The position numbers were made by a program, and so were the translations under genes. Under the pieces are notes generated by a model that had not been told where the DNA came from, did no database searches, and saw only the letters and a list, made by a program, of their open reading frames with translations. Source: a virus (lineage: Duplodnaviria; Caudoviricetes). Taken from it: a stretch of 28,499 nt of DNA. This document shows, piece by piece, positions 8,518 to 28,064 of the stretch. The stretch is taken from IMG/VR virus record IMGVR_UViG_3300033076_001405, positions 1 to 28,499 of that record; one strand, written 5' to 3'. Numbering within the stretch: position 1 is the first letter of the stretch; each line of letters begins with the position of its first letter.

Positions 8518-8529
8518 TAAATATTTGAT

Positions 8530-9542: not shown

Positions 9543-9546
9543 ATGA

Positions 9547-9578: not shown

Positions 9579-9597
9579 CTTTTGATTTTCTTTTTAA

Positions 9598-10133: not shown

Positions 10134-11858
10134 TTATCCAGGGAATGTAGCACCTGTTGGTAAGATGTTGAAATCTAGATAAATAAATTCTGCTGTTTTA
10201 GTTGGTTGGATATAAATCTGACCTACCATCTGATTTCTATCAACTACATCAGCTGGGTTATTACTATCATCCATAATTACTTTGAAAGCATATAAACCTT
10301 GTTTTTGTTGTACTGTTTCTAAGTACGGGTTTACAGCTGCTAAAAACGCATTTCTTGTAGCTATTGTATTTTGTTCGAATACTAAGTTTTGAGCTACTCC
10401 TGAAATATAGTTTTTAAGAGCAATTAATAAACGACGAACATTTACACGATCAAGAGCAGATGCTTTTTTCTGTAATGTTTTCTGACCATATACTACTACT
10501 CCATTTGCAGGGAATGTAGCTATTGGGTTTACAGCTCCTGTATAAAGGTTATCTCTTTGTGTTTGAGTTAATTTAGTTTCAGCTCTAACTACAAGATTTA
10601 AACCACCTCTATTAATACCAGCTGGTGCAAACCATGGTTCAGATACTGTATCGTTGTAAGCATATACACCTGGGATTACTGTAGATGCTGGGATCCATAC
10701 TAATTGACCTGAATCTGGTTCTGTAATTTGAACCCAAGGCCAATAAGAAGCAGCATATGATGTATTTCTAGTTCCTGCTTGTTGAGTAACAGCGGCAACA
10801 CTTGAACTATAAGCTACTAAATCAGCTACATAAATATTATCACCTCTATTTTGAGTATTGTTAATAATAGTAGTCATTACACCACCGTAATTAGTATCAG
10901 AGTTATATAAACCAGGAGTTACTAATACATTAAATTTGTAAGCATCAGCATTTGCTAAAGCAGCAATAGAAGCTGTATAATTATCTGCTACTAATCCTTG
11001 AGTATTTGTTGATGAAATTTTATCATAAAATAATGCTCCAGCTTTTACCGCACCCGTACCGGCTCCAAAAGATCCACTAGTATTAGCAGGCATATAATCA
11101 GCATATGCTGGGTTTGGATAACCACCGTTAGTAAAGTAATTAGGCATTAAGAAATCTTGGTCAATAGATGATACGTAAACATATCTTGATTGACGAGGAT
11201 AATTACCATATGTTTGAACAGCAAATGTGTTAGGATCAAGAGCTTCATATTGATCACCTATTACTTTAGAAATAAAGTTTGGTTGAGTTGGGTCTAAAGA
11301 TAAATTAGTCCAAGTTTCTAGAATAATTGGGTTATTAGTAGTATCATTACCTTGTCTAATCAATAAATCAAAAGTACCAGATGCGGTATTTGAACTTTGA
11401 ATTTGCCATCTAAGGTTATAATTAGAACCTGATGCTAATGAACCACTAGCGTCTAATGAACTTGAACTGTTCATAATAGCACCTACAGAAACAGTAGTTA
11501 AAGTAAATGCACTACCACTAGCAATAGCACCGGCTGTACTTCCTGAAACAAATGAAGATGTAGCGCTTGTATAAGAACCACTGACTACTCTAGTTACTAA
11601 TAAAGTTTCACCCCCGTTTGCGAAGAAATTATAAGCTGCAATAGATGTAAAGAATGAATATACATTACTAGCACTTAAAAAAGTTGAACCAAATTTGCTT
11701 GTATAATCACTATACGAAGTAACAATAGTTGGAACTTCTTTAGGTCCTATTACTGTAGGTCCAACAATAGCTGCACTATTTCTAATAGGTCCAGTAGATA
11801 CAAATGAGTTATCATTTTCTCTTGCAAGTACACCTGGGGATATTAATGTTTCTGCCAT
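10134..11858 (-). CDS. gp18: Tail sheath protein (T4 gp18-like)
   Basis: SPGVLAREND, YAASYWPWV, PWFAPAGINRG, VNPIATFP, GQKTLQ, LDRVNVRRLL, FEQN, IQPTKTAEFI are hallmark sheath motifs. Confidence 0.96.
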   Translation of the reverse strand: MAETLISPGVLARENDNSFVSTGPIRNSAAIVGPTVIGPKEVPTIVTSYSDYTSKFGSTFLSASNVYSFFTSIAAYNFFANGGETLLVTRVVSGSYTSATSSFVSGSTAGAIASGSAFTLTTVSVGAIMNSSSSLDASGSLASGSNYNLRWQIQSSNTASGTFDLLIRQGNDTTNNPIILETWTNLSLDPTQPNFISKVIGDQYEALDPNTFAVQTYGNYPRQSRYVYVSSIDQDFLMPNYFTNGGYPNPAYADYMPANTSGSFGAGTGAVKAGALFYDKISSTNTQGLVADNYTASIAALANADAYKFNVLVTPGLYNSDTNYGGVMTTIINNTQNRGDNIYVADLVAYSSSVAAVTQQAGTRNTSYAASYWPWVQITEPDSGQLVWIPASTVIPGVYAYNDTVSEPWFAPAGINRGGLNLVVRAETKLTQTQRDNLYTGAVNPIATFPANGVVVYGQKTLQKKASALDRVNVRRLLIALKNYISGVAQNLVFEQNTIATRNAFLAAVNPYLETVQQKQGLYAFKVIMDDSNNPADVVDRNQMVGQIYIQPTKTAEFIYLDFNILPTGATFPG

Positions 11859-11880: not shown

Positions 11881-11889
11881 TATAAATAT
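11881..11889 (-). promoter_or_regulatory. Putative late promoter motif ATATTTATA
   Basis: Exact 9-mer 22 nt upstream of the sheath ATG. Confidence 0.65.
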
Positions 11890-11906: not shown

Positions 11907-12146
11907 TCAGGTTTTTACAAATGTACCTGTATTTAGGTTTATTATTCCTTCTCCATATTTTTGTTGTAACAAAACACCTAATTTTTCTTGAATGGTGTTA
12001 ATTTCTTGTAACTGGTTTAAAAGATTTAATTTTTTAGTTTGGTATTCTGTTTCTAGATGTCCGAAACTATTAATTAATAAATCTTTTTTACTTTTTAAAT
12101 CTAATATAGTTGATAACTCTTCTGGGGATAAAATAATATTATCCAT
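11907..12146 (-). CDS. Small coiled-coil protein (79 aa from MDNIIL...), possible fibre chaperone
   Basis: ATG at 12146 lies 1 nt after the heptosyltransferase stop, a more plausible start than 12182. Heptad-like Leu pattern, then KYGEGIINLNTGTF. Confidence 0.7.
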   Translation of the reverse strand: MDNIILSPEELSTILDLKSKKDLLINSFGHLETEYQTKKLNLLNQLQEINTIQEKLGVLLQQKYGEGIINLNTGTFVKT

Positions 12147-12147
12147 A

Positions 12148-13347
12148 TTAATAAATATTAAGGACTTTATTAAGAGATTCAATCACTCTAAAAGGTTTGA
12201 TTGTTTTTGTACATTCAAATTGTTTGTATGTATTTTTGTTTTCAGGACACCATTCCCAATCACCTGGGTTGAGCCAATGTTTATTAAAACATCCTGTACA
12301 TACATTAGTATCATAATTAAAAATACGCTCACAATCAGTAAATTCACTATAAGGTAAACTAAATCCTGAAATTAAAATTACACGGGTACCAATAGACCAT
12401 GCTAGCCAAGATAACCCACTACCAACACCTATAAAAGCATCAGCATATTTTATATCGGTCATTCTATCTTCAAGTGGATAATTTCCGGTTTTATCAATTA
12501 CATTTTTTAAGGTTCCACCTAATTTAGAATCATGCCATTTATCTCCTAATTTTTCATGAGTAATCATTACTACTTTGTAACCTTGCTCATTTAAATAATC
12601 AATTACAGCTTGCCAACCACCCTTATGATTCCAATACTTAGCATGAGCAGAAGCATGAGGAGCAATAACTACATATTTACCATCAATTTGTTTAGTTTTA
12701 GTAGGTATTGTTATTTTAGGTTTAATTTCATTATATTTTAATCCTAAAACAGATGATGCTGTTTCACCAAGAGGATGTTGTTTAAAATCAATTGGAATTT
12801 TTGTTTTAACAACCTCTTTATTATCATAAAACCAACCTATATTATACATGGCATATAAATCATGTACTTCAGTTCCAGGACTAACAAATTCTAATTCAGG
12901 ATATTCTTTTTCAAACCATTCATTATGGAATGTAGAACAAATTACGTGACATTGATGTTTTTTTCTAAATTCATCAATAAAAGGAAACCATGCTAATGTA
13001 TCTCCAATAGCTGATGATTCTAAATGAATATAAACTCTTTTATTTTGAGCATTATAATCATGTTCAAATACTAATTCATTATTTTCTTTATCATATACTT
13101 CAATTCTCCATTCTATAAAATATTCAATACCGGGTTGGGTCCACATATTGTTTGTAATTTCGGTTTCGTAAATGATTTTATCATTTACTTTATCGATAAA
13201 TCTAATAATATATTTTTTAGATTCAGAACCTAATATTTCTAAAAATGCCCCTTTTAAAAAATGGAAATTGAATTTATTTACATCTTTTTTATAAGGTAAA
13301 TTTAATTGAATAATATTATTATACTCTTTAATTAAGACTTCTTTCAT
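12148..13347 (-). CDS. Aah/TibC-like (autotransporter strand-loop-strand) protein O-heptosyltransferase homologue, GT-B fold, with 4-Cys iron finger
   Basis: N-terminal beta module (FNFHFLKGAFLEI...YFIEWRIEV), SSAIGDTLAWFPFIDEFRKKHQC, AKYWNHKGGW, FIGVGSGLSWLAWSIG..LISGFS..YSEF, and CTGC-x13-WCP-x9-FEC. Confidence 0.88.
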   Translation of the reverse strand: MKEVLIKEYNNIIQLNLPYKKDVNKFNFHFLKGAFLEILGSESKKYIIRFIDKVNDKIIYETEITNNMWTQPGIEYFIEWRIEVYDKENNELVFEHDYNAQNKRVYIHLESSAIGDTLAWFPFIDEFRKKHQCHVICSTFHNEWFEKEYPELEFVSPGTEVHDLYAMYNIGWFYDNKEVVKTKIPIDFKQHPLGETASSVLGLKYNEIKPKITIPTKTKQIDGKYVVIAPHASAHAKYWNHKGGWQAVIDYLNEQGYKVVMITHEKLGDKWHDSKLGGTLKNVIDKTGNYPLEDRMTDIKYADAFIGVGSGLSWLAWSIGTRVILISGFSLPYSEFTDCERIFNYDTNVCTGCFNKHWLNPGDWEWCPENKNTYKQFECTKTIKPFRVIESLNKVLNIY

Positions 13348-14278
13348 ATATAACTTGTAATTCTTTTGAACGATTAAACCATGATAATTCTCTAGATGTA
13401 TTGAAAACTCTTTGTCTATATGATTCCCAATTTAATACAATATCTTTTAAACCTTTATCCATTTCAAATATATCTCTAGGAGCTCTCCAAGCACCATGAA
13501 AATCTGTTTCTCTTTCCCAATCAGCAATAATAGGTAAACCAGCAGCTGCTGCTTCAACCATTGTTAAATTAGGATGTCCAGCTTCTAACATAGTTGGATG
13601 GACAAAAATATCATGTTCATGATATAATTCTAACAATTTAGTATTAGGAGTATCAAATACCAAATTTAATTTAGAATAATTTAACATCCATAAATGATCA
13701 TTAAAAAATCTTTTATTATCTGAGGGGCCTGCTATGGTTATTTCAAGATTATTTAGCATTGCTAGTCCTAAACCATATGTAAATCCTTTTCTATCAAATG
13801 TAGCATTGCCTGCTAAACCATTATTTGCTACCATCAATAATTTTGGATTTATTGGTGTAGGTTTTTTGATTGGATAAAAATCATTTGTGTTTACACCATG
13901 AGAAAAATATACACATTTTGGATGTTCAAAATAATCAACTAAAAAACGAGCAGGCATTAAAGATATAACAGAACCTTCAATTGCTTTTAGATTTTCCTTA
14001 TAAACATAAGAATCTTTACCATAATGATAAGCATGATGATCATGTAATTGATATATATAAGGAATCCCTCTTTCAGCTAATTGGATTGCTAAGTTAGCAA
14101 CATGGCAATGTACAATATCATATTCTCCTGGTTGGATATGAGAGGTCATTTTAATATCTACTTCATGCCCTAATTCTCTTAAATTATTATAAAATTCCCA
14201 TACTATTTTTTCAATAGCTCCCCATGCTGGAGGAGGAATAGGGATACCACAACCTGGATCTACTTGGCAAATTTTCAT
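13328..14278 (-). CDS. Glycosyltransferase family 4 (GT-B)
   Basis: PIPPPAWGAIEKIV, GHEVD, DIVHCH, HGVNTNDFYP, RKGF, HDIFVHPTMLEAGHPNLTMVEAAAAGLPII. Confidence 0.9.
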   Translation of the reverse strand: MKICQVDPGCGIPIPPPAWGAIEKIVWEFYNNLRELGHEVDIKMTSHIQPGEYDIVHCHVANLAIQLAERGIPYIYQLHDHHAYHYGKDSYVYKENLKAIEGSVISLMPARFLVDYFEHPKCVYFSHGVNTNDFYPIKKPTPINPKLLMVANNGLAGNATFDRKGFTYGLGLAMLNNLEITIAGPSDNKRFFNDHLWMLNYSKLNLVFDTPNTKLLELYHEHDIFVHPTMLEAGHPNLTMVEAAAAGLPIIADWERETDFHGAWRAPRDIFEMDKGLKDIVLNWESYRQRVFNTSRELSWFNRSKELQVIYERSLN

Positions 14279-16935
14279 TCTTGAACGAATATTAATGGGT
14301 TATCAGTTTTACTATCTTTAATGGTTTGTTCTATAATACTAAAACCAGGAAGGTGTTTTGTGTATATTTTTTCGGCTGTTCCTATTTTTAATTGAGCAAC
14401 ATTACACATCCATAAATCAATAGCATCCCAAGGAAGTATTTCTAATAATTCTTTAATTTTTTTAGTTTTAAGATTATTAATCAAATATGATTGTGCTGGG
14501 ATAAATGGGGTTACATTTGTATAAATGTCTTCAATTTTAGGGCCATTTAAATTTCTATCTTGCCATGGATTACCAAAACCAATTACATCCATATCTGTTT
14601 GGTAGGATAATCTATTAAATCTGATTAAGGATTCATATAATTCTTGATAACTGCTATCAATTATAACATCACCTTCAACAATTAATACAAAATCATATTC
14701 ATTATTATCTTCAGCACATATAGCATTTTTATGTGCTAAATAACACCCATAATGCCCAGGGGCTAATTTATAATATCCAGGTTTATCTTGAACATCTTGA
14801 GGTCTAGCGCAAGTATCTACTGGGGGTAATTCTGTCCAAATTTTATTTATTCTTTGTTCGTATTTAATACCTGTTTTACTACAAAAATCTTTAATATTTT
14901 CTACTGAACGAATTTCTTTAGGATTAGTTTCGGGTTCAGTAACCAAATGCATTAATTTAATTTTTGTATTTGGGTTTTTTATTTCTAATTTACCATTAAA
15001 TTCCAAGTTTGTTACCTGAATGGTAATTTTTTTAAGGATTTTATGATAATTGCTAATTTTATATTCGACTTCCATTCCTTCTTCATATGAAAGAACTTTA
15101 TAATAATCTATTTTACTTTCTACATTTAGTTCATCAAAGAATACTTCATTTTTATCTTTATCACGTACTGTAATTTGAATAAGTCTTGATTCTTTACTAT
15201 TAGAAATTCTAATATAAGGAGCAAATGTATTTGGAATATTAGTAGGTAAAACTGTAAAGTATTCTACTTGAGAAAAATCATGATGGTTAAAAGTTTCTAA
15301 ACTTTTTTGTTCAAACAATTCAATATCTTCAAAATGAATTTTATCTGAACTTCTTTTAAATATATGATACCACATATTTTCAAGTCCATTACTTTCACTT
15401 CCTAATTGATAACGTAAATGTTCATATTCTTCAGCATTAAATATTTGATGAACATGATCAAAAAAGAAATCAGAATTAACAGCACAAAAATAAGTATGTA
15501 AAGCATCACCTTCCGAAGCTTTATATTTACCAAAATATGCTTTTTTGTTATCTAATATTTTTGAAATTTTATCTATGTGATGTACCGATTGTATTGTGTA
15601 ATCAAAATTAAGGAAAAATAATTTTTTATATCCTAAATTTTTAGCTAACGCAGCTCCATTTACGTAATTAGAATGTACACTAGGTCCATGATAAACATCA
15701 TTATCATTTCCTCTTAAATTAATATATACTTTATGGTCTAAATGGTCAGCCCAATAATTACAATAATAAGTATGTTTTGTTAAAATATTATTATTATCTA
15801 CAACAACATAATCTGCTTTTGCTTCAATTTCAAAAGGAACAGGAATATGAGATGTAACTAATACTTTAGTTCCTCGAGCATGAATTGAATCTATTGTTTT
15901 TAATGTAGTTTCAATTACAGCATCACTTATTGGAAATGTCGATAAAATAAATATTTCTTCATTTGGATTTGATTCTTTAATACCTAATTTTTCAGCAATT
16001 TTATCACAATTAGTTTTAAAGTCATCAAACTTTAAATAATTAATAGTTTCAAATTTATCAAAATAATCTAAATAAACAGGAAGATTATATATTAAAGTAG
16101 GAATTTGATAAGAAATTGCTTCTCTAATAACTAAAGGCATTGTTTCTTTATCTTTATCATGTCCACGAGATGTAAATAAAAATAAATCCATTGCCTGATA
16201 AAAAGCATCTACATCTGAGCGTTCATTCCACCAGGTTAAATTTGATGGTTGATTTTGAGCTAAAGGTTCCCAGTACCATTTAAAATTATCGGCTCTGTTT
16301 CCTAAACTATGAAATTCTACATCTGGGAATGATTTGGCGTATTCAAAAAATTCTGCTTGGTTTTTTCTTGATGTATATAAACCAACGTGTAAAACATGTT
16401 TTTTATTAGGATCTAATCCCAATTTAAGTAATGCTTCTTTTCTATCAGGGCGATTAATATATTCAATTGGATATTCTACTAATACTTTAGGAATATTTAA
16501 ATCTTTATATTGTTGAATTTGCCAATTTGATACAAACATAAATTTATCCGGGAAAAATCGTTTGTTATCTGTATCAAAAGATGAATCATGAGATGTTTCT
16601 ACTAATGAATAATTTCGATTTTGCACGTATATTTGACGAGCAATTTCATCATCCATAAAGAATTCGGGAATTTCCTCTAAATGAATTATATCCGGTTGAA
16701 TTTGTTGTATAATGTTAATTAATTCATGTTTATTATCACCTAAGGTAAAGAATTTATTAGAATCAATTAAATTTACTATTTTATTTCTTGTAACTACAAG
16801 AACACCTCCTGTACAATCTACCCATTCTACAAGATAAATTTCAAATTCATCTTTAAGTAATTCTATTTTTTTAGTTAAATATTGTGGGAGTCCGCCTGTT
16901 GATAAATGTGGGGCAATAAATAACAATTTTTGCAT
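14275..16935 (-). CDS. Multidomain glycosyltransferase: N-terminal GT4-like domain, uncharacterised central domain, C-terminal GT25-like domain (886 aa)
   Basis: PHLSTGGLPQY, HVGLYTSRKNQ, DLFLFTS..ETMPLVIREAIS (GT4). GHYGCYLAHKNAI...VLIVEGDVII...AQSYLI...DAIDLWM (GT25/LgtB-like). Confidence 0.85.
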   Translation of the reverse strand: MQKLLFIAPHLSTGGLPQYLTKKIELLKDEFEIYLVEWVDCTGGVLVVTRNKIVNLIDSNKFFTLGDNKHELINIIQQIQPDIIHLEEIPEFFMDDEIARQIYVQNRNYSLVETSHDSSFDTDNKRFFPDKFMFVSNWQIQQYKDLNIPKVLVEYPIEYINRPDRKEALLKLGLDPNKKHVLHVGLYTSRKNQAEFFEYAKSFPDVEFHSLGNRADNFKWYWEPLAQNQPSNLTWWNERSDVDAFYQAMDLFLFTSRGHDKDKETMPLVIREAISYQIPTLIYNLPVYLDYFDKFETINYLKFDDFKTNCDKIAEKLGIKESNPNEEIFILSTFPISDAVIETTLKTIDSIHARGTKVLVTSHIPVPFEIEAKADYVVVDNNNILTKHTYYCNYWADHLDHKVYINLRGNDNDVYHGPSVHSNYVNGAALAKNLGYKKLFFLNFDYTIQSVHHIDKISKILDNKKAYFGKYKASEGDALHTYFCAVNSDFFFDHVHQIFNAEEYEHLRYQLGSESNGLENMWYHIFKRSSDKIHFEDIELFEQKSLETFNHHDFSQVEYFTVLPTNIPNTFAPYIRISNSKESRLIQITVRDKDKNEVFFDELNVESKIDYYKVLSYEEGMEVEYKISNYHKILKKITIQVTNLEFNGKLEIKNPNTKIKLMHLVTEPETNPKEIRSVENIKDFCSKTGIKYEQRINKIWTELPPVDTCARPQDVQDKPGYYKLAPGHYGCYLAHKNAICAEDNNEYDFVLIVEGDVIIDSSYQELYESLIRFNRLSYQTDMDVIGFGNPWQDRNLNGPKIEDIYTNVTPFIPAQSYLINNLKTKKIKELLEILPWDAIDLWMCNVAQLKIGTAEKIYTKHLPGFSIIEQTIKDSKTDNPLIFVQE

Positions 16936-16949
16936 AACAGTCTATTTCC

Positions 16950-16958
16950 CATAAATAT
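16950..16958 (-). promoter_or_regulatory. Variant late promoter motif ATATTTATG upstream of the glycosyltransferase operon
   Basis: 8/9 match to the recurring motif, 14 nt upstream of the ATG at 16935. Confidence 0.55.
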
Positions 16959-16988
16959 ACGTAAAATTACTTAGAATACCAAGTTATA

Positions 16989-19900
16989 TTATCCGTTAGT
17001 ATAATATATTGTATCAGGATTAAATCTTATAGTATAATAAGATCCATTAATAGCAATTACTTGTCCTACTCCTTTTACTAATGAAGCTGATGTTGTAGGA
17101 GCAACACCTGTAACGTTACCTGTTGTTTCAGATACATAAACTGGATCTCCTGCTATTGATACGTTATTAACATATGTTGTACTATATATACCATCAATTA
17201 ATACTGAAATTGCTGAAGATCCTGCTCCTGCTGTTTTTAGTACTATTCCTAATAAATAATCAGTAGTTGCTCCTGAATTAGCATCTGCTAATGCCCATGT
17301 TCCTGTACCGGCTTTATAATATACTAATTGACCTGCACTCATAGCTGAATCAGATAATTGACCTGAAATTATTGTTCCTTGAACAAATAAAGATGCTTGG
17401 TTTGGACTAGTAAGTATTGAAGTTGTTCCTGGGTAAAATTTAGCTGTTAATGCAAGACCTGGTCCACTAGTATCACCTGTTATAAGAGAGTCATAAACTG
17501 GATCCCAGTATACTAAATCACTAGAGAAACTTACTTCTCCATTTACGTCTAATAATCTACCAGGACTTGCAGTGTTAATACCTAATCTACTATTAGTAAC
17601 ATCAGCATATAAGAATGATACACTTTGTACTGTTGTTGTACTTGTAGTTCTTACTAAGTAGTTAGGTTGGTTAGTAAATACACCACCACTAATACCGGAT
17701 GTACCGTTAATTGATTGACCACTTGTACCTGCTACACCACTTGTACCATTTGTTCCATTTATTCCTGAGGTACCACTAGCACCACTTGCACCACTATTAC
17801 CGTTGTTACCATTTGAACCATTAGATCCATTAGTTCCTGATACTCCTGATAATCCTCCGGCTCCATTAGCACCATTATTACCATTAGATCCATTTGAACC
17901 ATTGGTTCCTGAAATTCCTGAGTTTCCAGAGGCACCATTGTTTCCAGCATTACCTGAAGAACCATTTGAACCTGTAGTACCACTTACTCCTGATACTCCT
18001 GAGTTACCTGCGTTTCCATTGTTACCATTAGATCCTGAGGAACCATTTGTACCAGATACTCCTGACAATCCTGAGTTTCCGTTATTTCCTGCATTTCCAT
18101 TAGATCCGTTTGAACCTGAAGTTCCTGATACTCCACTTACTCCTGAGTTACCTGAGTTACCATTGTTTCCTGAGTTACCTGAAGAACCGTTTGAACCTGT
18201 AGTTCCTGATACTCCACTTACTCCTGAGTTTCCTGCATTTCCATTGTTACCATTAGATCCTGAGGAACCATTTGTACCAGATACTGCACTTATACCATTT
18301 CCACCAACAATACCACTTGATCCTGCTGAACCTGATGAACCTGAGGTTCCACTTACAGCAGAAGCTCCTGAGTTACCAGCGTTTCCGTTGTTTCCATTAG
18401 AACCATTTGAACCATTAGTTCCTGATATTCCTGAGTTACCTGAGTTACCATTGTTTCCAGCATTTCCTGAAGTACCATTTGAACCTGAGGTACCATTAGT
18501 ACCGCTTACTCCTGATACTCCTGAAGCTCCGTTGTTACCATTGTTTCCGTTTGAACCATTTGAACCATTGGTTCCTGAAATTCCTGAGTTACCAGAATTA
18601 CCATTAGCTCCTGAGTTTCCTGAAGTACCGTTTGAACCTGAAGTTCCGTTAGTACCGCTTACACCGCTATTTCCTGAAGCTCCATTGTTTCCTGAGTTTC
18701 CTGAAGTACCGTTTGAACCTGAGGTACCATTAGTACCGCTTACTCCTGATACTCCTGAGTTTCCTGAGTTACCTGAATTTCCTGAAGTACCGTTTGAACC
18801 AGTTGTACCTGAAGTACCACTTACTCCTGAATTTCCAGAAGCACCAGCATTACCATTAGATCCATTTGAACCATTAGTTCCACTTAAACCTGATACACCA
18901 CCGGCTCCATTAGCACCATTAGCACCATTAGATCCATTTGAACCATTAGTTCCACTTATTCCTGATACACCTGAGTTTCCGTTGTTTCCTGCGTTTCCGT
19001 TTGATCCATTAGATCCAGATGTTCCTGATACTCCACTTACTCCTGAGTTTCCTGAGTTACCAGCGTTACCTGAAGTACCATTTGAACCTGAAGTTCCGTT
19101 TGTTCCTGATACAGCACTTGCACCTGAATTTCCTGCAGCTCCTGAAGTACCATTAGATCCTGATGAACCTGAAGTAGCACTTATTGTACTAACTCCTGCT
19201 ACAGCAGCACCTCCTGAAGTACCGTTAGATCCTGTTGAACCTGAAGTTCCTGAAACTCCTGAGTTACCTGAGTTACCATTAGCACCATTGTTTCCTGAAG
19301 TACCATTAGAACCAGTAGTACCATTAGTACCACTTACTCCTGATACACCTGAGTTTCCAGCGTTTCCTGAAGTACCATTAGATCCTGTTGAACCTGAAGT
19401 TCCACTTACAGCACTAACACCATTAGTACCTGCATTACCTGAAATACCATTTGAACCTGAAGATCCAGATGTTCCTGAGAGTGCACTTACACCTGAAGTA
19501 CCAGCTACACCATTTATACCATTTGAACCATTAGATCCTGATGAACCTGAAGTAGCACTTATTGTACTAATACCGGCTGTTGCTGCTACACCTGATGAAC
19601 CGTTAGTTCCAGTTGAACCTGAAGTTCCAGAAGTTGCGCTTAAACCTGAGTTTCCAGCATTTCCTGAGGTACCATTTGAACCTGTTGAACCACTAGTTCC
19701 ACTTACAGCTGATGCTCCATTATTTCCAGCATTTCCATTTGAACCTGAAGATCCTGAAGTACCTGAAGTTGCACTTAATCCTGAGTTTCCTGCGTTTCCA
19801 TTTGAACCATTTGAACCTGATGTACCACTTGTTCCACTTAATGCGCTAGCACCATTATTTCCAGCTACACCTGAAGAACCTGTAGTTCCTGATGAACCAC

Positions 19901-22900
19901 TAGATCCACTTACAGCTGATGCTGTACTTTGACCTGAAGTTGCTGCTGCTCCTGAAGTACCTGATGAACCTGTTGATCCACTAGTACCAGATGTTGCACT
20001 TAATCCTGAGTTTCCTGCGTTTCCATTGTTACCATTAGATCCACTTGAACCTGTTGTACCGGAAGTAGCACTTAAACCACTGTTTCCTGCTATACCTGCA
20101 GCACCATTTGAACCATTTGAACCTGAAGTACCTGAAGTACCACTTATATTTGAAGTTCCACTGTTTCCAGCGTTACCATTTGTACCATTTGAACCTGATG
20201 AACCTGAGGTTCCACTTAATGCACTTGCTCCTGAATTCCCAGCATTACCTGATGAACCTGAAGTACCTGATGAACCTGAAGATCCTGAAGTTCTACTTAA
20301 TCCAGAATTACTTGTATCACCTGAAGAACCATTAGTACCAGTTGAACCACTTGTACCTGAAGTACCACTTATATTTGAAGTACCATTAGCACCTGCATTA
20401 CCATTTGAACCATTTGAACCTGATGTGCCACTTGTTCCACTTAATGCACTTGCCCCACTATTTCCAGCAGCACCTGACGAACCGTTAGTTCCTGATGAAC
20501 CTGAAGTTCCACTTGTAGCACTTAATCCTGAATTTCCGGCTACACCTGCATTACCAGATGAGCCATTTGTACCAGTTGATCCTGAAGTTCCTGATGTTGC
20601 ACTTAATCCTGAGTTTCCAGCTACTCCAGCATTTCCACTTGAACCGTTTGAACCTGAAGTACCTGAAGTACCGCTTATGTTTGAAGTTCCACTTGCACCT
20701 GCAGCTCCATTTGAACCTGATGAACCTGTAGAACCTGATGTTCCGCTTATGTTTGAGGTACCACTATTTCCAGCAGCACCTGAAGAACCATTTGTTCCCG
20801 TTGAACCTGAAGTTCCACTTGTAGCACTTAATCCTGAATTTCCAGCAGCACCTGCAGATCCGTTTGAACCTGAAGAACCACTAGTGCCTGAAAGTGCACT
20901 TGCTCCATTATTTCCAGCTACACCATTAGTTCCTGATGAACCAGTTGTACCTGAAGTACCACTTAAACCACTATTTCCAGCAGCACCTGATGAACCATTT
21001 GAACCTGAAGAACCACTAGTACCTGAAAGTGCACTTGCTCCATTATTTCCAGCATTACCTGAGGAACCATTAGAACCTGATGTTCCACTTGTTCCACTTA
21101 TATTTGAAGTACCACTGTTTCCAGCAGCACCGTTTGAACCATTAGATCCTGTTGAACCTGAAGTTCCACTTGTAGAGCTTAAACCACTATTTCCAGCAGC
21201 ACCTGTTGATCCTGAAGTTCCTGATGAACCTGAAGTACCTGATGTACTTGATAAAGCACTTAATCCATTAGAACCAGCATTTCCTGAGGTACCATTTGAA
21301 CCTGAGGTTCCGCTTGTTCCACTTATATTTGAAGTTCCATTATTTCCGGCAGCACCTGATGAACCGTTTGAACCTGAAGATCCTGAAGTACCTGATAAGG
21401 CACTTAAACCTGAGTTTCCGACTACACCATTTGAACCGTTTGAACCTGAAGATCCAGTTGTACCTGAAGTAGCACTTAAACCACTATTTCCTGCTACACC
21501 AGCATTTCCTGAGGAACCGTTTGAACCAGATGTACCTGAAGTACCACTTATATTTGAAGTACCGCTGTTACCAGCAGCACCATTTGAACCGTTTGAACCT
21601 GAAGATCCTGAAGTACCTGATAAGGCACTTAAACCATTGTTACCAGCATTTCCAGATGAACCATTAGTTCCTGAAGAACCAGATGAACCTGATGCTTGGC
21701 TTAAACCATTTGTTCCTATATTTCCTGAAGTTCCTGCTGAACCACTTGAACCTGATGTTCCACTTAAATTACTTGAACCATTACTTCCTGCTACTCCTGT
21801 AGTTCCTGCTGATCCACTTGAACCTGAAGTCCCGGCTACTTGGCTAGTACCATTTGTACCAGCAGCTCCTGATGATCCGTTTGAACCTGAAGATCCGGAT
21901 GAACCACTTAATCCGTTTACACCGTTAAATCCATTTAATCCTGATGAACCACTAGTACCTGAAGTAGCACTTAAACCACTTGAACCAGCAGCACCTGATG
22001 AACCATTTGTTCCTGTTGATCCTGAAGTTCCAGAAAGTGCACTTAAACCATTTGTTCCTGCTGCTCCACTAGAACCATTAGATCCAGTTGAACCTGAAGT
22101 GCCAGATAAAGCACTTACACCATTAGTACCAGCAGCACCACTTGAACCGTTTGAACCTGAAGTACCACTTGTAGCGCTTAAACCACTATTTCCAGCATTA
22201 CCTGTTGATCCATTTGAACCTGAAGATCCAGATGTTCCTGAAAGTGCACTTACACCTGAAGTACCAGCAGCACCGCTTGAACCATTTGAACCTGTAGAAC
22301 CTGAAGTACCTGAAAGAGCACTAGCTCCACTATTTCCGGCTGCACCATTTGAACCATTAGTTCCTGTTGAACCTGAAGTTCCTGAAGTAGCACTTAATCC
22401 TGAATTTCCAGCGTTACCTGCAGCACCATTACTACCGTTTGAACCTGAAGTACCTGATGTACCGCTTATGTTTGAAGTACCGCTGTTTCCAGCAGCACCA
22501 TTTGAACCGTTTGAACCTGAGGTACCTGAAGTACCTGAAAGAGCACTAGCTCCACTATTTCCAGCATTACCTGAGGAACCATTTGAACCAGATGAACCTG
22601 AAGTTCCAGATAATGTACTTAAACCATTTGTTCCTGCTGCTCCACTAGAACCATTTGAACCTGTTGAACCTGAAGTTCCACTCAATGCGCTTAATCCTGA
22701 ATTACCAGCTGCTCCTGAAGAACCATTTGAACCCGTAGAACCTGAAGTACCAGATAAAGCACTTACACCATTAGTACCAGCAGCACCACTTGAACCGTTT
22801 GAACCTGAAGTTCCACTTGTTCCACTTAAGGCACTTATACCATTTGTTCCTGCTGCTCCACTAGAACCATTTGAACCGGTTGAACCTGAAGTTCCACTTA

Positions 22901-25259
22901 CAGCAGAAGCTCCTGAATTACCAGCATTACCACTTGAACCATTTGTTCCAGTTGAACCTGAAGTTCCACTTGTAGCACTTAATCCTGAATTACCAGCGGC
23001 ACCATTTGAACCATTTGAACCTGAGGTTCCACTTGTTCCACTTAATGCGCTAGCACCATTATTTCCAGCGGCGCCTGAAGTACCATTTGAACCTGAAGAA
23101 CCAGATGTTCCTGAGAGTGCACTAGCACCATTACTTCCAACAGCACCTGAAGTACCATTAGAACCTGTAGAACCACTAGTTCCACTTATATTTGAAGTAC
23201 CGCTGTTACCTGCGTTTCCTGAGGAACCGTTTGAACCAGTTGTACCTGAAGTACCTGATAAGGCACTTATACCATTAGTACCAGCAACTCCTGAAGATCC
23301 ATTTGAACCTGAAGTACCTGATGTACCTGAAAGATTACTTATTCCGTTAGTTCCAGCTATACCACTTGAACCATTTGAACCAGATGTACCTGAAGTACCA
23401 CTTATATCTGAAGAGCCACTGTTTCCAGCAACACCATTTGTACCATTTGAACCTGAAGTACCAGATGTACCTGATAAAGCACTAACACCAGCATTACCAT
23501 CAACACCTGAAGAGCCATTGGATCCACTTGAACCTGATGAACCTGAAGTTGAACTTAAACCAGCAGTACCTGCATTTCCTGAAGTACCATTAGATCCACT
23601 TGAACCTGAAGTTCCACTTAATGCACTTAAACCATTAGTACCTGCATTTCCAGATGAACCATTAGATCCTGAAGAACCACTTGTGCCTGATAATGCACTT
23701 AAACCGTTTGTCCCGGCTGCTCCACTAGAACCATTTGAACCTGTTGAACCTGATGTTCCACTCAATGCGCTAGCACCACTATTTCCAGCATTACCTGAGG
23801 AACCATTAGTTCCTGAAGAACCTGATGAACCAGAAGTTGCACCTAAACCAGAAGTTCCAGCATTACCTGAAGCTCCATTTGAACCAGATGAACCTGAAGT
23901 TCCGGAAGTAGCACTAATACCTGAAGTACCTGCGTTTCCTGATGTACCATTAGATCCAGTTGTACCGGAAGTACCTGAAGTTGCACTAGCACCGCTATTT
24001 CCTGCTACTCCTGAAGAACCATTAGTTCCTGTTGAACCTGAAGTACCGCTTATATTTGAAGTACCGCTACTTCCTGCAGCACCACTTGAACCATTTGAAC
24101 CTGTTGAACCTGAAGTACCTGAAAGTGCACTAGCACCTGAATTACCATTATTACCACTTGAACCATTAGTTCCTGATGAACCTGAGGATCCAGATGTAGC
24201 ACTAGCACCACTATTTCCAGCTGCTCCTGAGGAACCGTTTGAACCAGTTGTACCTGAAGTACCTGATAAAGCACTTAAACCACTACTTCCAATAGCTCCT
24301 GATGAACCATTAGTTCCTGATGAACCTGAAGTACCACTTAATGTACTTACACCATTTGTTCCGGCAGCTCCTGATGAACCTGCTGAACCTGTTGATCCTG
24401 AGGTACCAGATATTGCACTTGCTCCATTGTTCCCAGCATTTCCACTAGAACCATTAGAACCAGTTGAACCGGACGTACCTGATACTGCTGAAATACCTGA
24501 ATTTCCAGCATTACCTGATGATCCATTAGTTCCAGTTGAACCACTTGTACCAGATGTTGCACTAAGTCCACTGTTTCCAGCATTTCCACTAGAACCATTA
24601 GTTCCAGTAGTACCTGAAGTACCACTTGTTTTTGAGTCTCCACTAGTACCTGCATTACCTGATGATCCATTAGTTCCAGTTGAACCTGATGTTCCTGAAG
24701 TAGAACTTAAACCACTGTTTCCAGCAACACCATTTGAACCATTAGTACCTGTTGTACCTGAAGTTCCGCTTGATGCACTTGCTCCTGAATTTCCATTATT
24801 ACCTGAAGAACCAGCTGTACCTGAAGAACCAGCTGTACCTGAGGTACCTGCTACTCCGGCAGTACCATTAGTACCAGAAACACCACTTGTACCTGAGGTT
24901 GAATTTACATATCCAACAACTCCTGTTGTTGGGTTATAAGTTACAACATAAGGACCTGATTGAACAGGTAAAGTTTGTAAAATAATTGGTTGAGAAGATC
25001 CTGAAATTACTAAAGAACCAGTAATTACTGCGGATCCTGAAAAAGGGAAACCAACTCCTTGAACAAAGATAGTTACACCATCATTTGTTCCCATAGGAGC
25101 AAAACCGGAAACGGTTGCTGAACCGCTAATATTAATGTAAGGTACACTAGCACTTACTAATGTACCATTTTGATAAATATCAATTGTACCACCACCATTT
25201 GTGGGATCTATATTATATACGCCTACCGGAACCTGGTCTAGGAATCTTACTTGAGCCAT
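16989..25259 (-). CDS. Giant Gly-X-X repeat virion fibre protein (2756 aa), collagen-like or polyglycine-II-like
   Basis: About 120-aa N-terminal domain (FPFSGSAVITGSLVISGS), about 2400 aa of G-X-X repeats, fibre-type RLGINTASPGRLLDVNG segment and a globular C-terminal domain. Located in the structural module with the late motif upstream. Confidence 0.85.
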   Translation of the reverse strand: MAQVRFLDQVPVGVYNIDPTNGGGTIDIYQNGTLVSASVPYINISGSATVSGFAPMGTNDGVTIFVQGVGFPFSGSAVITGSLVISGSSQPIILQTLPVQSGPYVVTYNPTTGVVGYVNSTSGTSGVSGTNGTAGVAGTSGTAGSSGTAGSSGNNGNSGASASSGTSGTTGTNGSNGVAGNSGLSSTSGTSGSTGTNGSSGNAGTSGDSKTSGTSGTTGTNGSSGNAGNSGLSATSGTSGSTGTNGSSGNAGNSGISAVSGTSGSTGSNGSSGNAGNNGASAISGTSGSTGSAGSSGAAGTNGVSTLSGTSGSSGTNGSSGAIGSSGLSALSGTSGTTGSNGSSGAAGNSGASATSGSSGSSGTNGSSGNNGNSGASALSGTSGSTGSNGSSGAAGSSGTSNISGTSGSTGTNGSSGVAGNSGASATSGTSGTTGSNGTSGNAGTSGISATSGTSGSSGSNGASGNAGTSGLGATSGSSGSSGTNGSSGNAGNSGASALSGTSGSTGSNGSSGAAGTNGLSALSGTSGSSGSNGSSGNAGTNGLSALSGTSGSSGSNGTSGNAGTAGLSSTSGSSGSSGSNGSSGVDGNAGVSALSGTSGTSGSNGTNGVAGNSGSSDISGTSGTSGSNGSSGIAGTNGISNLSGTSGTSGSNGSSGVAGTNGISALSGTSGTTGSNGSSGNAGNSGTSNISGTSGSTGSNGTSGAVGSNGASALSGTSGSSGSNGTSGAAGNNGASALSGTSGTSGSNGSNGAAGNSGLSATSGTSGSTGTNGSSGNAGNSGASAVSGTSGSTGSNGSSGAAGTNGISALSGTSGTSGSNGSSGAAGTNGVSALSGTSGSTGSNGSSGAAGNSGLSALSGTSGSTGSNGSSGAAGTNGLSTLSGTSGSSGSNGSSGNAGNSGASALSGTSGTSGSNGSNGAAGNSGTSNISGTSGTSGSNGSNGAAGNAGNSGLSATSGTSGSTGTNGSNGAAGNSGASALSGTSGSTGSNGSSGAAGTSGVSALSGTSGSSGSNGSTGNAGNSGLSATSGTSGSNGSSGAAGTNGVSALSGTSGSTGSNGSSGAAGTNGLSALSGTSGSTGTNGSSGAAGSSGLSATSGTSGSSGLNGFNGVNGLSGSSGSSGSNGSSGAAGTNGTSQVAGTSGSSGSAGTTGVAGSNGSSNLSGTSGSSGSAGTSGNIGTNGLSQASGSSGSSGTNGSSGNAGNNGLSALSGTSGSSGSNGSNGAAGNSGTSNISGTSGTSGSNGSSGNAGVAGNSGLSATSGTTGSSGSNGSNGVVGNSGLSALSGTSGSSGSNGSSGAAGNNGTSNISGTSGTSGSNGTSGNAGSNGLSALSSTSGTSGSSGTSGSTGAAGNSGLSSTSGTSGSTGSNGSNGAAGNSGTSNISGTSGTSGSNGSSGNAGNNGASALSGTSGSSGSNGSSGAAGNSGLSGTSGTTGSSGTNGVAGNNGASALSGTSGSSGSNGSAGAAGNSGLSATSGTSGSTGTNGSSGAAGNSGTSNISGTSGSTGSSGSNGAAGASGTSNISGTSGTSGSNGSSGNAGVAGNSGLSATSGTSGSTGTNGSSGNAGVAGNSGLSATSGTSGSSGTNGSSGAAGNSGASALSGTSGTSGSNGSNGNAGANGTSNISGTSGTSGSTGTNGSSGDTSNSGLSRTSGSSGSSGTSGSSGNAGNSGASALSGTSGSSGSNGTNGNAGNSGTSNISGTSGTSGSNGSNGAAGIAGNSGLSATSGTTGSSGSNGNNGNAGNSGLSATSGTSGSTGSSGTSGAAATSGQSTASAVSGSSGSSGTTGSSGVAGNNGASALSGTSGTSGSNGSNGNAGNSGLSATSGTSGSSGSNGNAGNNGASAVSGTSGSTGSNGTSGNAGNSGLSATSGTSGSTGTNGSSGVAATAGISTISATSGSSGSNGSNGINGVAGTSGVSALSGTSGSSGSNGISGNAGTNGVSAVSGTSGSTGSNGTSGNAGNSGVSGVSGTNGTTGSNGTSGNNGANGNSGNSGVSGTSGSTGSNGTSGGAAVAGVSTISATSGSSGSNGTSGAAGNSGASAVSGTNGTSGSNGTSGNAGNSGNSGVSGVSGTSGSNGSNGNAGNNGNSGVSGISGTNGSNGSNGANGANGAGGVSGLSGTNGSNGSNGNAGASGNSGVSGTSGTTGSNGTSGNSGNSGNSGVSGVSGTNGTSGSNGTSGNSGNNGASGNSGVSGTNGTSGSNGTSGNSGANGNSGNSGISGTNGSNGSNGNNGNNGASGVSGVSGTNGTSGSNGTSGNAGNNGNSGNSGISGTNGSNGSNGNNGNAGNSGASAVSGTSGSSGSAGSSGIVGGNGISAVSGTNGSSGSNGNNGNAGNSGVSGVSGTTGSNGSSGNSGNNGNSGNSGVSGVSGTSGSNGSNGNAGNNGNSGLSGVSGTNGSSGSNGNNGNAGNSGVSGVSGTTGSNGSSGNAGNNGASGNSGISGTNGSNGSNGNNGANGAGGLSGVSGTNGSNGSNGNNGNSGASGASGTSGINGTNGTSGVAGTSGQSINGTSGISGGVFTNQPNYLVRTTSTTTVQSVSFLYADVTNSRLGINTASPGRLLDVNGEVSFSSDLVYWDPVYDSLITGDTSGPGLALTAKFYPGTTSILTSPNQASLFVQGTIISGQLSDSAMSAGQLVYYKAGTGTWALADANSGATTDYLLGIVLKTAGAGSSAISVLIDGIYSTTYVNNVSIAGDPVYVSETTGNVTGVAPTTSASLVKGVGQVIAINGSYYTIRFNPDTIYYTNG
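17685..24900 (-). repeat. Degenerate coding tandem repeat: 9-nt G-X-X triplets grouped into about 72-nt (24-aa) units
   Basis: Consensus GTS GST GSN GSS GAA GNS GLS ALS with 21- and 27-residue variants; synonymous codons vary between units. Confidence 0.95.
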
Positions 25260-25277
25260 TCTTTAGTGTTTATCTCG

Positions 25278-25286
25278 TATAAATAT
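25278..25286 (-). promoter_or_regulatory. Putative late promoter motif ATATTTATA
   Basis: Exact 9-mer 18 nt upstream of the fibre ATG. Confidence 0.65.
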
Positions 25287-25295: not shown

Positions 25296-26249
25296 TCATA
25301 TTGCATTTACTTTTTTCTTAACTTCTAGAGCTTTTATTGTCTCTGGAGTTGTTATTGATCCATTGCCATTATCTTGGCCATTATACAAGGCATCTACTGA
25401 AGAGGCTTCAACTGAGAATATAATTTTTGTTGTATCTGAGAATTTTTTTAATGAATTTATATCTTTTTGTAAAATTTCGGGAACTATATAACCATTTAAT
25501 TTTATATTAAATGTACTTCTAACCATACGTTCATCATTATTAACCAATTCAGTTTGGAAACCAAAAGAATCAATCATAGCTCTAAATTTAAAACGTTCAG
25601 GATCACCCCAATACGCATCTGAAGCATAATTTATTGCTTCAACTATTTTATTTAATTGTTCTACATAATAAGTAAAAGCAATACATGTATAATTTATAGT
25701 AACATAATCAGGAATTACTGTAGCGTAAAATTGTTTTTCAGGAATTCTATTAGTTAATACTTTAAAGTTATCATATGAATTTCGAGCATCATATTTTTTC
25801 TGAGAGACACTATAATTATGAGGATTATTAGCATCTAATTTATTACTAATAGATCTAACTTTATCCATTGATTCACGTTTAAACATAATCAAAGGAGCCA
25901 TAATTTTTCCATTTTGATCTCTATAATAACCATCCTTTTGAAATGATTTCCATTTTTCAGGAGAACCATATATTACAGGTACAGGTAATCTTTCTCCGTT
26001 TTGATAAACAGAAGGTTGAATTACATTTTCAAAGTAATAAAATACGGCTTCATCAATATCTTTAATACCAACGCTAAATGGTTTTGTATTATCATCGCGA
26101 AATGATGTCTGTAATGCACGGTTAACACCAGGGACATTAGGATCGGCGTAATTTGGATTTCCCGCTGGTACATACGTTGATTTATGCTGTTCGACGCTAA
26201 TCTCACGTTGCGTCTTGGGTGTTGGTTTATTTAATCTATTAGTTGCCAT
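25296..26249 (-). CDS. Tail terminator / sheath stabiliser (T4 gp15-like)
   Basis: VPVIYGSPEKW...PLIMFKR...IPDYVTINY...EQLNKIVEAI pattern; follows the neck genes with a TAATG overlap. Confidence 0.75.
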   Translation of the reverse strand: MATNRLNKPTPKTQREISVEQHKSTYVPAGNPNYADPNVPGVNRALQTSFRDDNTKPFSVGIKDIDEAVFYYFENVIQPSVYQNGERLPVPVIYGSPEKWKSFQKDGYYRDQNGKIMAPLIMFKRESMDKVRSISNKLDANNPHNYSVSQKKYDARNSYDNFKVLTNRIPEKQFYATVIPDYVTINYTCIAFTYYVEQLNKIVEAINYASDAYWGDPERFKFRAMIDSFGFQTELVNNDERMVRSTFNIKLNGYIVPEILQKDINSLKKFSDTTKIIFSVEASSVDALYNGQDNGNGSITTPETIKALEVKKKVNAI

Positions 26250-26834: not shown

Positions 26835-28064
26835 TTATCCTATAAAAATTGTCATTGGTACATTATTAATTTCAGCAACACGAGCTATTGATTCTGCTGC
26901 TCTTCTTTCAAGCAATGCTTGACGAGAAGTTTGATCAAAATATTCTCTCAATCTGGTGATTAATGCTTCTTTTTCTGCTTCTGCTGAAGATACTAAAGAA
27001 TCACCATTTAAAGTTACTTCTGCTCCTGGAATAGGAACTGTTGCATATTTATTTCTTACTAAACCTAATACTTCTTTAGCTTTAGCTAATGTATATTCAA
27101 ATATCCAACTTCTACCTATTGAATTAATTTGAGAATATGTTGGATTTTGATAAGGTACATTAGATGTATTTGAAATTTTATTAGTTCCATTAGCAAAAGC
27201 AGCATCTACTCTATCTTGAATTTTGATAAAATCAAATACTAAATAATGTCCATACCCTAAACCACCACCATCATCAATTCCTAAATCAAAATCACCAGTT
27301 CCAGGAATTGGAAATACTGAAATGATGTTATTAACTATGTTAAATGTATAATTAGAAAGTGTTACTGTGTTATTCATTTCAATTGCTTGAATGTTTTGCA
27401 TAGTAAAACTTGTTGGCATCATTAAGTAATTGGAATACCCATAACCTAGACCATAAACACCAGCTGCAGGAACACCTCCTAAACCATTACCAGCTCCTGT
27501 TCCTAACATAGGAGCATACATTTGACTAACTGCTGGAGGTGGTTGATAAAATACATTTTTAATTTCAATACCTCCAACAATACCATTAGCTTCTGCCCAA
27601 GCTGATAAATCATAGTCTTGAACACCTGGTTGAAGGACTAATTGACCTTTAAACCAAGTTACATTACCACCTGCTCCTGCTTCTTCACCATATTGTTGAG
27701 ATAATCTAACAATACTAGAAAATGTAGGAGTAACAACGTCTGTGTTAACATCCACAGATGTTGGGGCGCCTTCTAAAGATAAGTAATTATCTCGAGTTTG
27801 AAAAGCATATAATTCATTACCATATATGGTAACAGCTTCTTCAAATCCTGCCCAAAAATTAATATCTTGTAATTCTACGTTTTCAATAGGATAACCTAAA
27901 CGTAAAGCACAAAAATTAGCTACTTTATTAGCATCTGCTTGGAATTGAGAATCATTATCATAAAATCCAAAAGGTGTTGGTGGCGGCCAAGCCCCAGACA
28001 CATAGTATGATTGTGATACTTGTGCAAATGAAGATGAACCAGGCCATATTGGAATGTTTGCCAT
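26835..28064 (-). CDS. Neck / head-tail adaptor protein (T4 gp13-like)
   Basis: LRLGYPIENVEL and WIFEYTLAKAKEVLGLVRNKY..PGAEVTLNGD motifs typical of gp13. Confidence 0.82.
   Translation of the reverse strand: MANIPIWPGSSSFAQVSQSYYVSGAWPPPTPFGFYDNDSQFQADANKVANFCALRLGYPIENVELQDINFWAGFEEAVTIYGNELYAFQTRDNYLSLEGAPTSVDVNTDVVTPTFSSIVRLSQQYGEEAGAGGNVTWFKGQLVLQPGVQDYDLSAWAEANGIVGGIEIKNVFYQPPPAVSQMYAPMLGTGAGNGLGGVPAAGVYGLGYGYSNYLMMPTSFTMQNIQAIEMNNTVTLSNYTFNIVNNIISVFPIPGTGDFDLGIDDGGGLGYGHYLVFDFIKIQDRVDAAFANGTNKISNTSNVPYQNPTYSQINSIGRSWIFEYTLAKAKEVLGLVRNKYATVPIPGAEVTLNGDSLVSSAEAEKEALITRLREYFDQTSRQALLERRAAESIARVAEINNVPMTIFIG

Follow-up and report, generated by a model that had tools for sequence, protein, structure and literature searches.

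In the tail module of a 28,499-nucleotide stretch of a Caudoviricetes virus (IMG/VR record IMGVR_UViG_3300033076_001405, positions 1 to 28,499; hereafter the window), a giant fibre gene with a Gly-X-Ser repeat lies beside an operon of three glycosyltransferase (GT) genes, one of which encodes a homologue of the protein O-glycosyltransferase TibC. We propose, with a probability of roughly 0.7, that the TibC homologue O-glycosylates serines of the fibre, that the other GT domains extend the glycan and that the glycan stabilizes a three-chain virion fibre. Late in infection, (i) the TibC homologue would add the first sugar to serines at triplet position 3 of the new fibre chain; (ii) the GT4 and GT-A domains would lengthen and branch the sugar chain; and (iii) three chains, starting at the C-terminal domain, would wind into a helix of collagen type that is held together by the glycans. 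A first-pass annotation of the window had suggested TibC-like initiation and GT4/GT25 extension on a mucin-like fibre. Enzyme conservation, a shared upstream motif and the co-distribution of enzyme and repeat genes support the enzymatic part of this scheme, but the term mucin-like and the place given to a small neighbouring gene did not hold up.

The 399-aa product of the last GT gene is homologous to the Aah/TibC (BAHT, GT9) family of protein O-glycosyltransferases. It scores 323.9 bits against TIGR04414 (cut-off 200) over model positions 5–374 and matches the TibC structure 4RAP with an E value of 1.5e-56. The TibC residues Asp110, Thr226, Lys230, Arg286 and Trp305 correspond to D116, S233 (a Thr to Ser change), K237, R295 and W314, and the four iron-finger cysteines are kept (C350, C353, C367 and C379; iron binding is predicted), while TibC Pro300 is replaced by Gly; catalytic, donor-binding and iron-binding roles of the TibC residues are taken from PMC4358343. 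Among 49 non-redundant viral homologues, the Lys, the Trp and the four Cys are invariant, and the Asp is present in 48 (one sequence is truncated). These comparisons establish the 399-aa protein, at the level of sequence, as a full TIGR04414 member with intact active-site residues. TibC acts on Ser and not on Thr (PMC4358343), and Ser is more than twofold as frequent as Thr at position 3 in 61 of the 63 long repeat proteins, so the repeat matches the acceptor preference of the enzyme. It is probably the TibC homologue, rather than a GT4 domain, that attaches the first sugar. The identity of this sugar as a heptose drawn from the host pool is more tentative, at slightly under even odds. Of 101 genomes from the order to which a Flavobacteriales metagenome-assembled genome (MAG) belongs, 45 have gmhA-like genes, and HldE-like genes directly follow the enzyme gene in contig L052, with scores below cut-offs.

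The 2756-aa fibre protein comprises a ∼120-aa N-terminal domain, a ∼2400-aa Gly-X-Y region without proline and a ∼235-aa C-terminal region, and contains 763 Gly, 739 Ser, 338 Asn and 313 Thr but five Lys in the whole protein. Gly occupies the first position in 714 of 809 triplets, in a single frame. Position 2 is Thr in 225 triplets, Ser in 222 and Asn in 131, and it holds a small residue in 86%; position 3 is Ser in 474 of 809, Asn in 177, Ala in 98 and Thr in 44, i.e. Ser/Thr in ∼60%. Pro and charge are near-absent from the repeat (at most one Pro and two charged residues per 150 residues). Superimposed on the triplets, over most of the region, is a 24-residue super-repeat of 61 exact units, each consisting of seven Gly-X-Y triplets and one triplet of the form non-Gly-X-Ser (mostly Ala-X-Ser); the autocorrelation at lag 24 is 0.61, and Ser occurs at unit positions 3, 21 and 24 in 59, 60 and 61 of the 61 units. 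Unbroken Gly-X-Y runs of 83 and 63 triplets lie near the C-terminus. The first-pass annotation had recognized a giant Ser/Thr-rich fibre, but the strict Gly-X-Y periodicity had gone unremarked; rather than a random Ser/Thr mucin, the protein has a Gly-X-Ser repeat of collagen type and end domains of trimer type.

The fibre gene is unlikely to be an assembly artefact. At the DNA level its repeat units are on average 66% identical, the same codon is used for 52% of the residues that agree between units, and the gene contains no exact repeat of 80 nt or longer. This low codon sharing and the lack of long exact repeats indicate that selection acts on the protein and that misassembly is unlikely. 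A contig from a public sequencing run, which may be the source sample, spans the fibre–GT junction (16667–17635), but the contigs compared are too fragmented to cover the whole fibre. Two candidate features were set aside. The 118 N-X-S/T sequons are explained by composition, and Asn is missing from many relatives, so N-glycosylation was discounted; the long plus-strand open reading frames (ORFs) at 17803–19932 and 20026–24939 are Pro/Glu-rich antisense shadows of the repeat codons.

The ends of the protein bear on its oligomeric state. The C-terminal region has a weak cement-like domain match, just under the cut-off, and in the close relative L006 a Peptidase_S74 chaperone (PF13884, E 5.8e-17) takes its place. 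Domains of both kinds are trimer-type modules, which favours a three-chain fibre folding from the C-terminus; we consider a homotrimeric triple helix nucleated by the C-terminal domain reasonably likely. Three other repeat proteins have the same N-terminal domain, and the genes of two of them come directly after the gp15-like gene; this domain may be the anchor. A single-sequence AlphaFold model of residues 1–520 was uninformative (pLDDT 28), and searches of the PDB with the repeat sequence returned generic collagens that match by composition only.

The repeat carries neither of the usual stabilizers of collagen-type helices, i.e. Pro/hydroxyproline or Lys–Asp/Glu salt bridges, so an extra stabilizer would be necessary if the helix forms. 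Glycosylated Thr substitutes for hydroxyproline elsewhere (PMC11923368), and we give about even odds to the glycan being required for the structure and serving in shielding or adhesion secondarily. The same features could instead indicate a fibre that is glycosylated without being a triple helix, e.g. a disordered mucin-like brush or a single-chain polyglycine-II bundle in which the 24-residue period corresponds to turns: Gly is regularly lost at each eighth triplet over 61 units, Pro and charge are missing, and the short tracts on bacterial lipoproteins may be simple linkers. We regard this as improbable because Gly keeps one frame over ∼2400 residues with unbroken runs of 83 and 63 triplets, the C-terminal domains are of trimer type, many relatives have repeats without the 24-mer, and the pond-water fibril TLP-3 (discussed below) shows that such triplets can make a glycan-stabilized triplex.

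Four further GT domains accompany the TibC homologue. The model of the 886-aa protein (pLDDT 78) contains a GT4 GT-B domain (residues 1–320), a GT-A domain (∼324–580) and a GT25-like GT-A domain (∼655–866). The middle domain matches the WrtF fucosyltransferase (Z 13.7, rmsd 3.1, 167 residues aligned), a result of the fold search; an ESM Atlas search assigned no family to it. The last domain has no Pfam match; its best structural match is mimivirus R655 (Z 14.9, rmsd 3.4, 184 aligned), and 20 of 30 ESM Atlas matches are PF01755 (GT25) clusters (score 0.97). The top Foldseek match of the tandem GT-A part is human COLGALT1 (E 2e-11), with an rmsd of 19.7 over the two-domain span; on these models, the match is a likeness of fold and not evidence of substrate. 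With the second GT4 domain, in the 316-aa protein, the total comes to five (one TibC/Aah-family, two GT4 and two GT-A), which sharpens the earlier count of at least four. In relatives the cassette also includes FkbM methyltransferases, a carbamoyltransferase or sugar-nucleotide enzymes, as would be expected if the glycans diversify.

These families also raise the idea that the GTs alter host lipopolysaccharide (LPS) or surface glycans and thereby block superinfection. GT9, GT4 and GT25 all include LPS enzymes, WaaG and WaaB are among the nearest GT-B folds, and the sugar-nucleotide enzymes of relatives would suit such a role. However, the GT9 protein reaches 324 bits against the protein-modifying family, compared with 33 or less against LPS heptosyltransferases, the operon carries the motif of structural genes (see below), and an LPS target leaves the tie to the Gly-X-Ser gene unexplained; we consider it very improbable.

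The upstream motif places the operon with the virion genes. The window contains 14 copies of ATATTTAT against 7.1 expected, a number reached in 2 of 100 shuffles, and of the 13 minus-strand copies seven fall in the 60 nt that precede a start codon, although such stretches cover just 3.6% of the window (p ∼1e-7). The motif is common to the starts of the fibre gene, GT operon, small pre-sheath gene, sheath, tube, hub and tape measure, much as the first-pass annotation had described. In relatives, its core lies upstream of 75 of 81 sheath and 92 of 95 tube genes, and upstream of the first GT gene in 16 of 25 distinct relatives; for inner operon genes the counts are 0/30 and 1/38. From this placement, the GT operon appears to be expressed together with the structural genes, and we infer that ATATTTAT is a late promoter. 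A scan for sigma-70 promoters gave no enrichment (58 found, 61.9 expected). Position and motif also bear on whether the GTs hypermodify phage DNA. One GT-B fold match is T4 alpha-glucosyltransferase (1y6f), whose Z of 15.5 is shared by many others, and phage GTs often modify DNA (PMC12619734); but here both position and motif are those of structural genes, the TibC family modifies protein Ser, and no base-modifying gene was found in the window with Pfam and PHROG, making DNA an extremely improbable target.

We then compared the distributions of enzyme and repeat among phages. IMG/VR was scanned for the repeat pattern blind to the enzyme (∼6,300 stretches match, as estimated from 2 of 64 parts), and 40 contigs of at least 50 kb were searched with the enzyme profile. 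The enzyme is present in 26 of these (25 over cut-off): in 14 of 16 contigs at least 50% complete, in 12 of 24 below that and in 8 of 9 at least 90% complete. The sole miss in the last class has Gly-X-Thr, so all eight near-complete Gly-X-Ser contigs carry the enzyme; near-complete repeat-bearing genomes range from 63 to 548 kb. By contrast, 49 control contigs selected by a sheath motif (of 124 listed stretches, 50 were taken: 39 in order and 11 for their length) contain the enzyme once and the repeat never. Among controls of at least 50 kb, with three added sheath-selected contigs and Immutovirus, the enzyme occurs in 1 of 13 (Fisher p 3.5e-4). Viewed from the enzyme side, a Gly-Ser/Thr repeat gene is found in 29 of 34 IMG/VR loci with at least 5 kb upstream (drawn from 56 enzyme loci, redundant ones included). 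In GenBank, the enzyme is found in 4 of 50,697 phage records, three of them distinct, and the repeat gene adjoins it in two of the three: the 735-kb genome LR756501, with two enzyme copies, and the cultured Microcystis phage Mel-JY01 (PP395634). Enzyme and repeat are thus strongly, though not strictly, coupled in related phage genomes, and the pairing first described from one window recurs well beyond it.

Some of these loci have distinctive arrangements. LR756501 (L058) has 1,662 Gly-Ser/Thr pattern matches genome-wide and a divergently transcribed GT cassette in which a GT4 is fused to the TibC domain. In Mel-JY01 (L057, positions 1–9986), repeat genes flank a GT4-FkbM-TibC fusion annotated just as a methyltransferase. 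In L040 (3006–20852) and L041, a cassette with a carbamoyltransferase converges on an opposite-strand Gly-X-Ser gene of 2,700 aa. In marine L052 (375–4414) and L053 (5162–13703), the same slot holds GTs and sugar-nucleotide enzymes (HldE-like halves, a C-methyltransferase, a dehydratase and an RmlD-like enzyme) and no Gly-X-Ser gene. The Gly-X-Thr/Gly-Pro-Thr repeat contigs L149 and L204 lack a TibC homologue, and L204 has a GT4-domain protein; this suggests a separate Thr-type system.

Bacterial chromosomes supply a simpler version of the pairing. The best 80 of 627 GTDB enzyme loci, selected by the enzyme only, form two branches in a midpoint-rooted FastTree phylogeny (support 1.00 and 0.83). 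In the branch that includes the phages, 20 of 31 loci have a repeat gene nearby; in the other, 0 of 49 do. The chromosomal repeat proteins are short, carry a signal peptide or lipobox and have Gly-Thr-Ser and Gly-Ser-Ser tracts. A scan of 91 neighbouring ORFs at 10 chromosomal loci (of 105 listed, leaving out one near-duplicate locus and three shadow frames) found no GT4, GT2 or GT25 and one GT87, so that the enzyme pairs there with the repeat alone. This pairing provides the strongest case for recognition of the repeat by the TibC homologue itself. A lone TibC homologue with repeat-tract proteins was observed in L413, L422, L424, L426–L429, L431, L432, L434, L438 and L439, which belong to Methylococcales, other Gammaproteobacteria, a Burkholderiaceae and a Bdellovibrionota MAG. 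In four of these loci (L428, L429, L434 and L439), a DUF6502 gene lies ahead of the enzyme.

We are fairly confident that the fibre is the acceptor. The cassette could instead glycosylate other virion proteins (capsid, sheath or neck), with the fibre a minor or incidental substrate that happens to share a common variable slot. The neck-to-sheath interval is indeed a general variable slot, cassettes without a Gly-X-Ser gene occupy it in L052–L056, L099 and L120, in L040 and L041 the cassette comes directly after the major capsid gene, and glycosylation of capsid and tail tube is known (PMC12619734, PMC11256854). Yet the L040 and L041 contigs also have the large Gly-X-Ser gene, the near-complete Gly-X-Ser contigs have the enzyme without exception, and bacterial chromosomes, which encode no virion, pair the enzyme with secreted repeat proteins. 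Other virion targets are therefore unlikely.

Several observations weigh against fibre glycosylation as proposed here. The proposal is built from genes, with glycan, virion and enzyme activity all predicted. On the enzyme side, (i) 21 of the 49 viral homologues lack the adenine-contacting Arg, which the other 28, including this clade, keep; (ii) heptose-synthesis genes are rare in enzyme-bearing records (over cut-off, rfaE domain II in 1 of 37 and gmhA in 1 of 37); and (iii) the repeat differs from the beta-helix substrate of AIDA-I/TibA. For the fibre, a non-Gly residue at every eighth triplet and the lack of Pro or salt bridges are unfavourable for a triple helix. The coupling also has gaps. 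The complete 636-kb genome LR756504, marine L052–L056 and L099, and G073 have the enzyme and no visible Gly-X-Ser gene; some neighbours of the enzyme are Gly-X-Gln or Pro collagens instead (L032, L077 and L097); and the cassette of L040 and L041 follows the major capsid gene. Conversely, G033 (148 kb, 84% complete) has repeat and GT4 genes and no enzyme, and the repeat stands without the enzyme in G004 and G058 (∼30% complete) and in 12 of the 24 contigs less than 50% complete. Lastly, the controls are less complete than the cases (1 of 49 at 90% or more), the genomes are not phylogenetically independent, and ∼10 of the 31 'bacterial' loci resemble phage contigs binned in MAGs (GC 24–37%).

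The features of the window are collected in Table 1. All genes are on the minus strand, in the order neck adaptor, two small genes, the fibre/GT stretch, then sheath, tube, hub, tape measure and baseplate genes (Pfam, PHROG). The positions given for the fibre, the three GT genes and the end of the small gene (11907) in the first-pass annotation agree with ours, as do the ATGA overlap at 14275–14278 and the 20-nt overlap at 13328–13347.

Table 1. Features of the fibre/GT region and its flanks (window positions)
Feature	Position	Strand	Matches and remarks
Giant fibre gene, 2756 aa	16989..25259	-	Pfam Collagen (PF01391) E 5e-255; PHROG tail-fibre families
Gly-X-Y repeat, residues ∼122–2520	17700..24896	-	
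C-terminal cement-like domain match	17202..17387	-	PF09956 E 1.1e-4, 23 bits, just below cut-off 24
Three-domain glycosyltransferase, 886 aa	14275..16935	-	PF00534 E 3.4e-10
GT4 glycosyltransferase, 316 aa	13328..14278	-	PF00534 E 5.6e-6 (at cut-off), PF13439 E 4.5e-5; PHROG glycosyltransferase
Aah/TibC-family (BAHT, GT9) protein O-glycosyltransferase homologue, 399 aa	12148..13347	-	
Conserved pre-sheath gene, 79 aa	11907..12146	-	
ATATTTAT before fibre gene, putative late promoter	25279..25286	-	
ATATTTAT before GT operon	16951..16958	-	
ATATTTAT before small gene	12151..12158	-	overlaps 3' end of TibC-like gene
ATATTTAT before sheath gene	11882-11889		
Contractile tail sheath (flank)	10134..11858	-	PF04984, PF17482
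317-aa gene following neck genes (flank)	25296..26249	-	gp15-like by position only
PHROG head-tail adaptor family match	26835-28064		

The small pre-sheath gene probably starts at ATG 12146, which gives 79 aa. Its product is 30% identical to Immutovirus gp042 (pairwise E 6e-8), and it is found in 17 of 27 scored neck-to-sheath intervals, those 17 having neither enzyme nor fibre (the table of intervals leaves out fibre-bearing ones by size and was used for this gene only). It had been counted in the glycosylation system; its occurrence in Immutovirus and in intervals without the cassette marks it, on gene distribution, as a core tail-module gene outside the cassette. For the 317-aa gene, the gp15-like label given earlier agrees with gene order, but the product has no Pfam or NCBIfam match and just a weak match to a PHROG of unknown function. 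The closest cultured sheaths are those of Flavobacterium phage immuto (53.7% identity) and then Mel-JY01 (48.9%), and the same cassette is present on the Flavobacteriales MAG contig L409; a Bacteroidota host is likely from these sequence affinities. Elsewhere in the tail module, an unlisted minus-strand ORF of ∼54 aa (5232–5396) lies between the tape measure and a 429-aa gene and has its own ATATTTAT at 5408–5415. At 8530–9502 (minus strand), a 249-aa gene and a 99-aa ORF share a 77-nt overlap immediately ahead of the tape measure, the usual position of the tail-assembly chaperone pair.

The closest known systems are TibC–TibA and Aah–AIDA-I (TIGR04414; 4RAP, 4RB4; PMC4358343). Enzymes of this family use ADP-heptose to heptosylate Ser, assemble as a dodecamer ring and have as partner an autotransporter with beta-helix heptosylation motifs. 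They share with the window a full-length homologous enzyme with the same catalytic, donor-binding and iron-finger residues, encoded beside a large Ser-rich repeat protein. They differ in that the present enzyme is phage-encoded and on a separate tree branch, its presumed acceptor is a collagen-type Gly-X-Ser repeat rather than an autotransporter beta-helix (the neighbouring fibre has no autotransporter domain in Pfam or NCBIfam), and four extra GT domains suggest extended glycans. Phage GTs also decorate virion proteins in mycobacteriophage Che8 (Freeman 2023, cited in PMC12619734 and PMC11256854), but the targets there are capsid and tail tube, and the excerpts of those two papers mention neither a TibC-type enzyme nor a collagen-like acceptor. 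Mimivirus likewise encodes collagen-like proteins and its own GTs (L230, R699, R655; compare human COLGALT1), which act on hydroxylysine (PMC9546862), whereas the window fibre is almost devoid of Lys. In the spore glycoprotein BclA and vent-worm cuticle collagen, a glycosylated hydroxy-amino acid replaces hydroxyproline at position 3 of Gly-X-Y (PMC11923368), as proposed here; that residue is Thr, whereas the window fibre has Ser and no Pro. Pro is present in both BclA and the vent-worm collagens. Flavobacterium phage vB_FspM_immuto (Immutovirus) has the closest cultured tail module, including the small gene ahead of the sheath, and its fibre shares the C-terminal domain of the window fibre. 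It has neither a TibC homologue nor a Gly-X-Ser repeat. The excerpted moraphage paper records core GTs and names no substrates. Virion glycosylation, viral collagen GTs and BAHT enzymes are thus each already known. We found no literature on a TibC-type enzyme paired with a phage Gly-X-Ser fibre, including for Mel-JY01, in a search that most subscription papers lay outside.

A structural counterpart may exist in TLP-3, a 4-nm fibril obtained from pond water by CryoSeek, in which three tripeptide-repeat chains carry triplets of two small residues followed by an O-glycosylated Ser/Thr with eight modelled sugars in a branched arrangement. Its rise is 2.9 angstrom and its twist 105.6 degrees, interlocking glycans stabilize it, and its authors did not find its source (bioRxiv 10.1101/2025.09.30.679562); PMC12956863 does not mention TLP-3. 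The phage repeats come close to its small-small-Ser/Thr pattern to varying degrees and share its freshwater setting, and its branched eight-sugar glycan would need several GTs. Such a rise and twist are close to collagen helix values. The likeness has limits: Ser/Thr fills position 3 of the window fibre in just ∼60% of triplets, no sequence ties this fibre to the TLP-3 map, and the reported Ser3-to-Gly1 hydrogen bond of TLP-3 differs from canonical collagen, with its hand left unassigned. Among the 63 relatives, 11 reach at least 90% Ser/Thr at position 3, and L106, L136 and L176 have 95–98% Ser. The phage repeat family therefore fits the TLP-3 residue pattern, best in these three and less in the window fibre. 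We would go further only speculatively, as a doubtful but specific suggestion: the TibC branch could be a dedicated serine glycosyltransferase of Gly-X-Ser collagens with which aquatic phages of 60–735 kb build glycan-stabilized triple-helix fibres that lack proline and are of sub-micrometre length, the source of TLP-3-type glycofibrils. Eukaryotes or bacteria could be that source instead.

What is new is the fit of the Gly-X-Ser phage protein family to TLP-3, which, if the proposal is true, would provide a concrete candidate for the origin of that fibril. Because the cultured Mel-JY01 carries both genes, the question is testable now, and this phage is the obvious experimental system. The enzymes would also offer a soluble set for glyco-engineering simple peptide repeats. 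At 0.286 nm per residue, the repeat of the window fibre would be ∼690 nm long (up to ∼0.7 micrometre), and its helix would represent a third route to a stable collagen helix, by Ser glycosylation without proline or salt bridges. More broadly, a very common class of aquatic phage proteins would be glycoproteins made by an enzyme family otherwise associated with the adhesins of pathogens.

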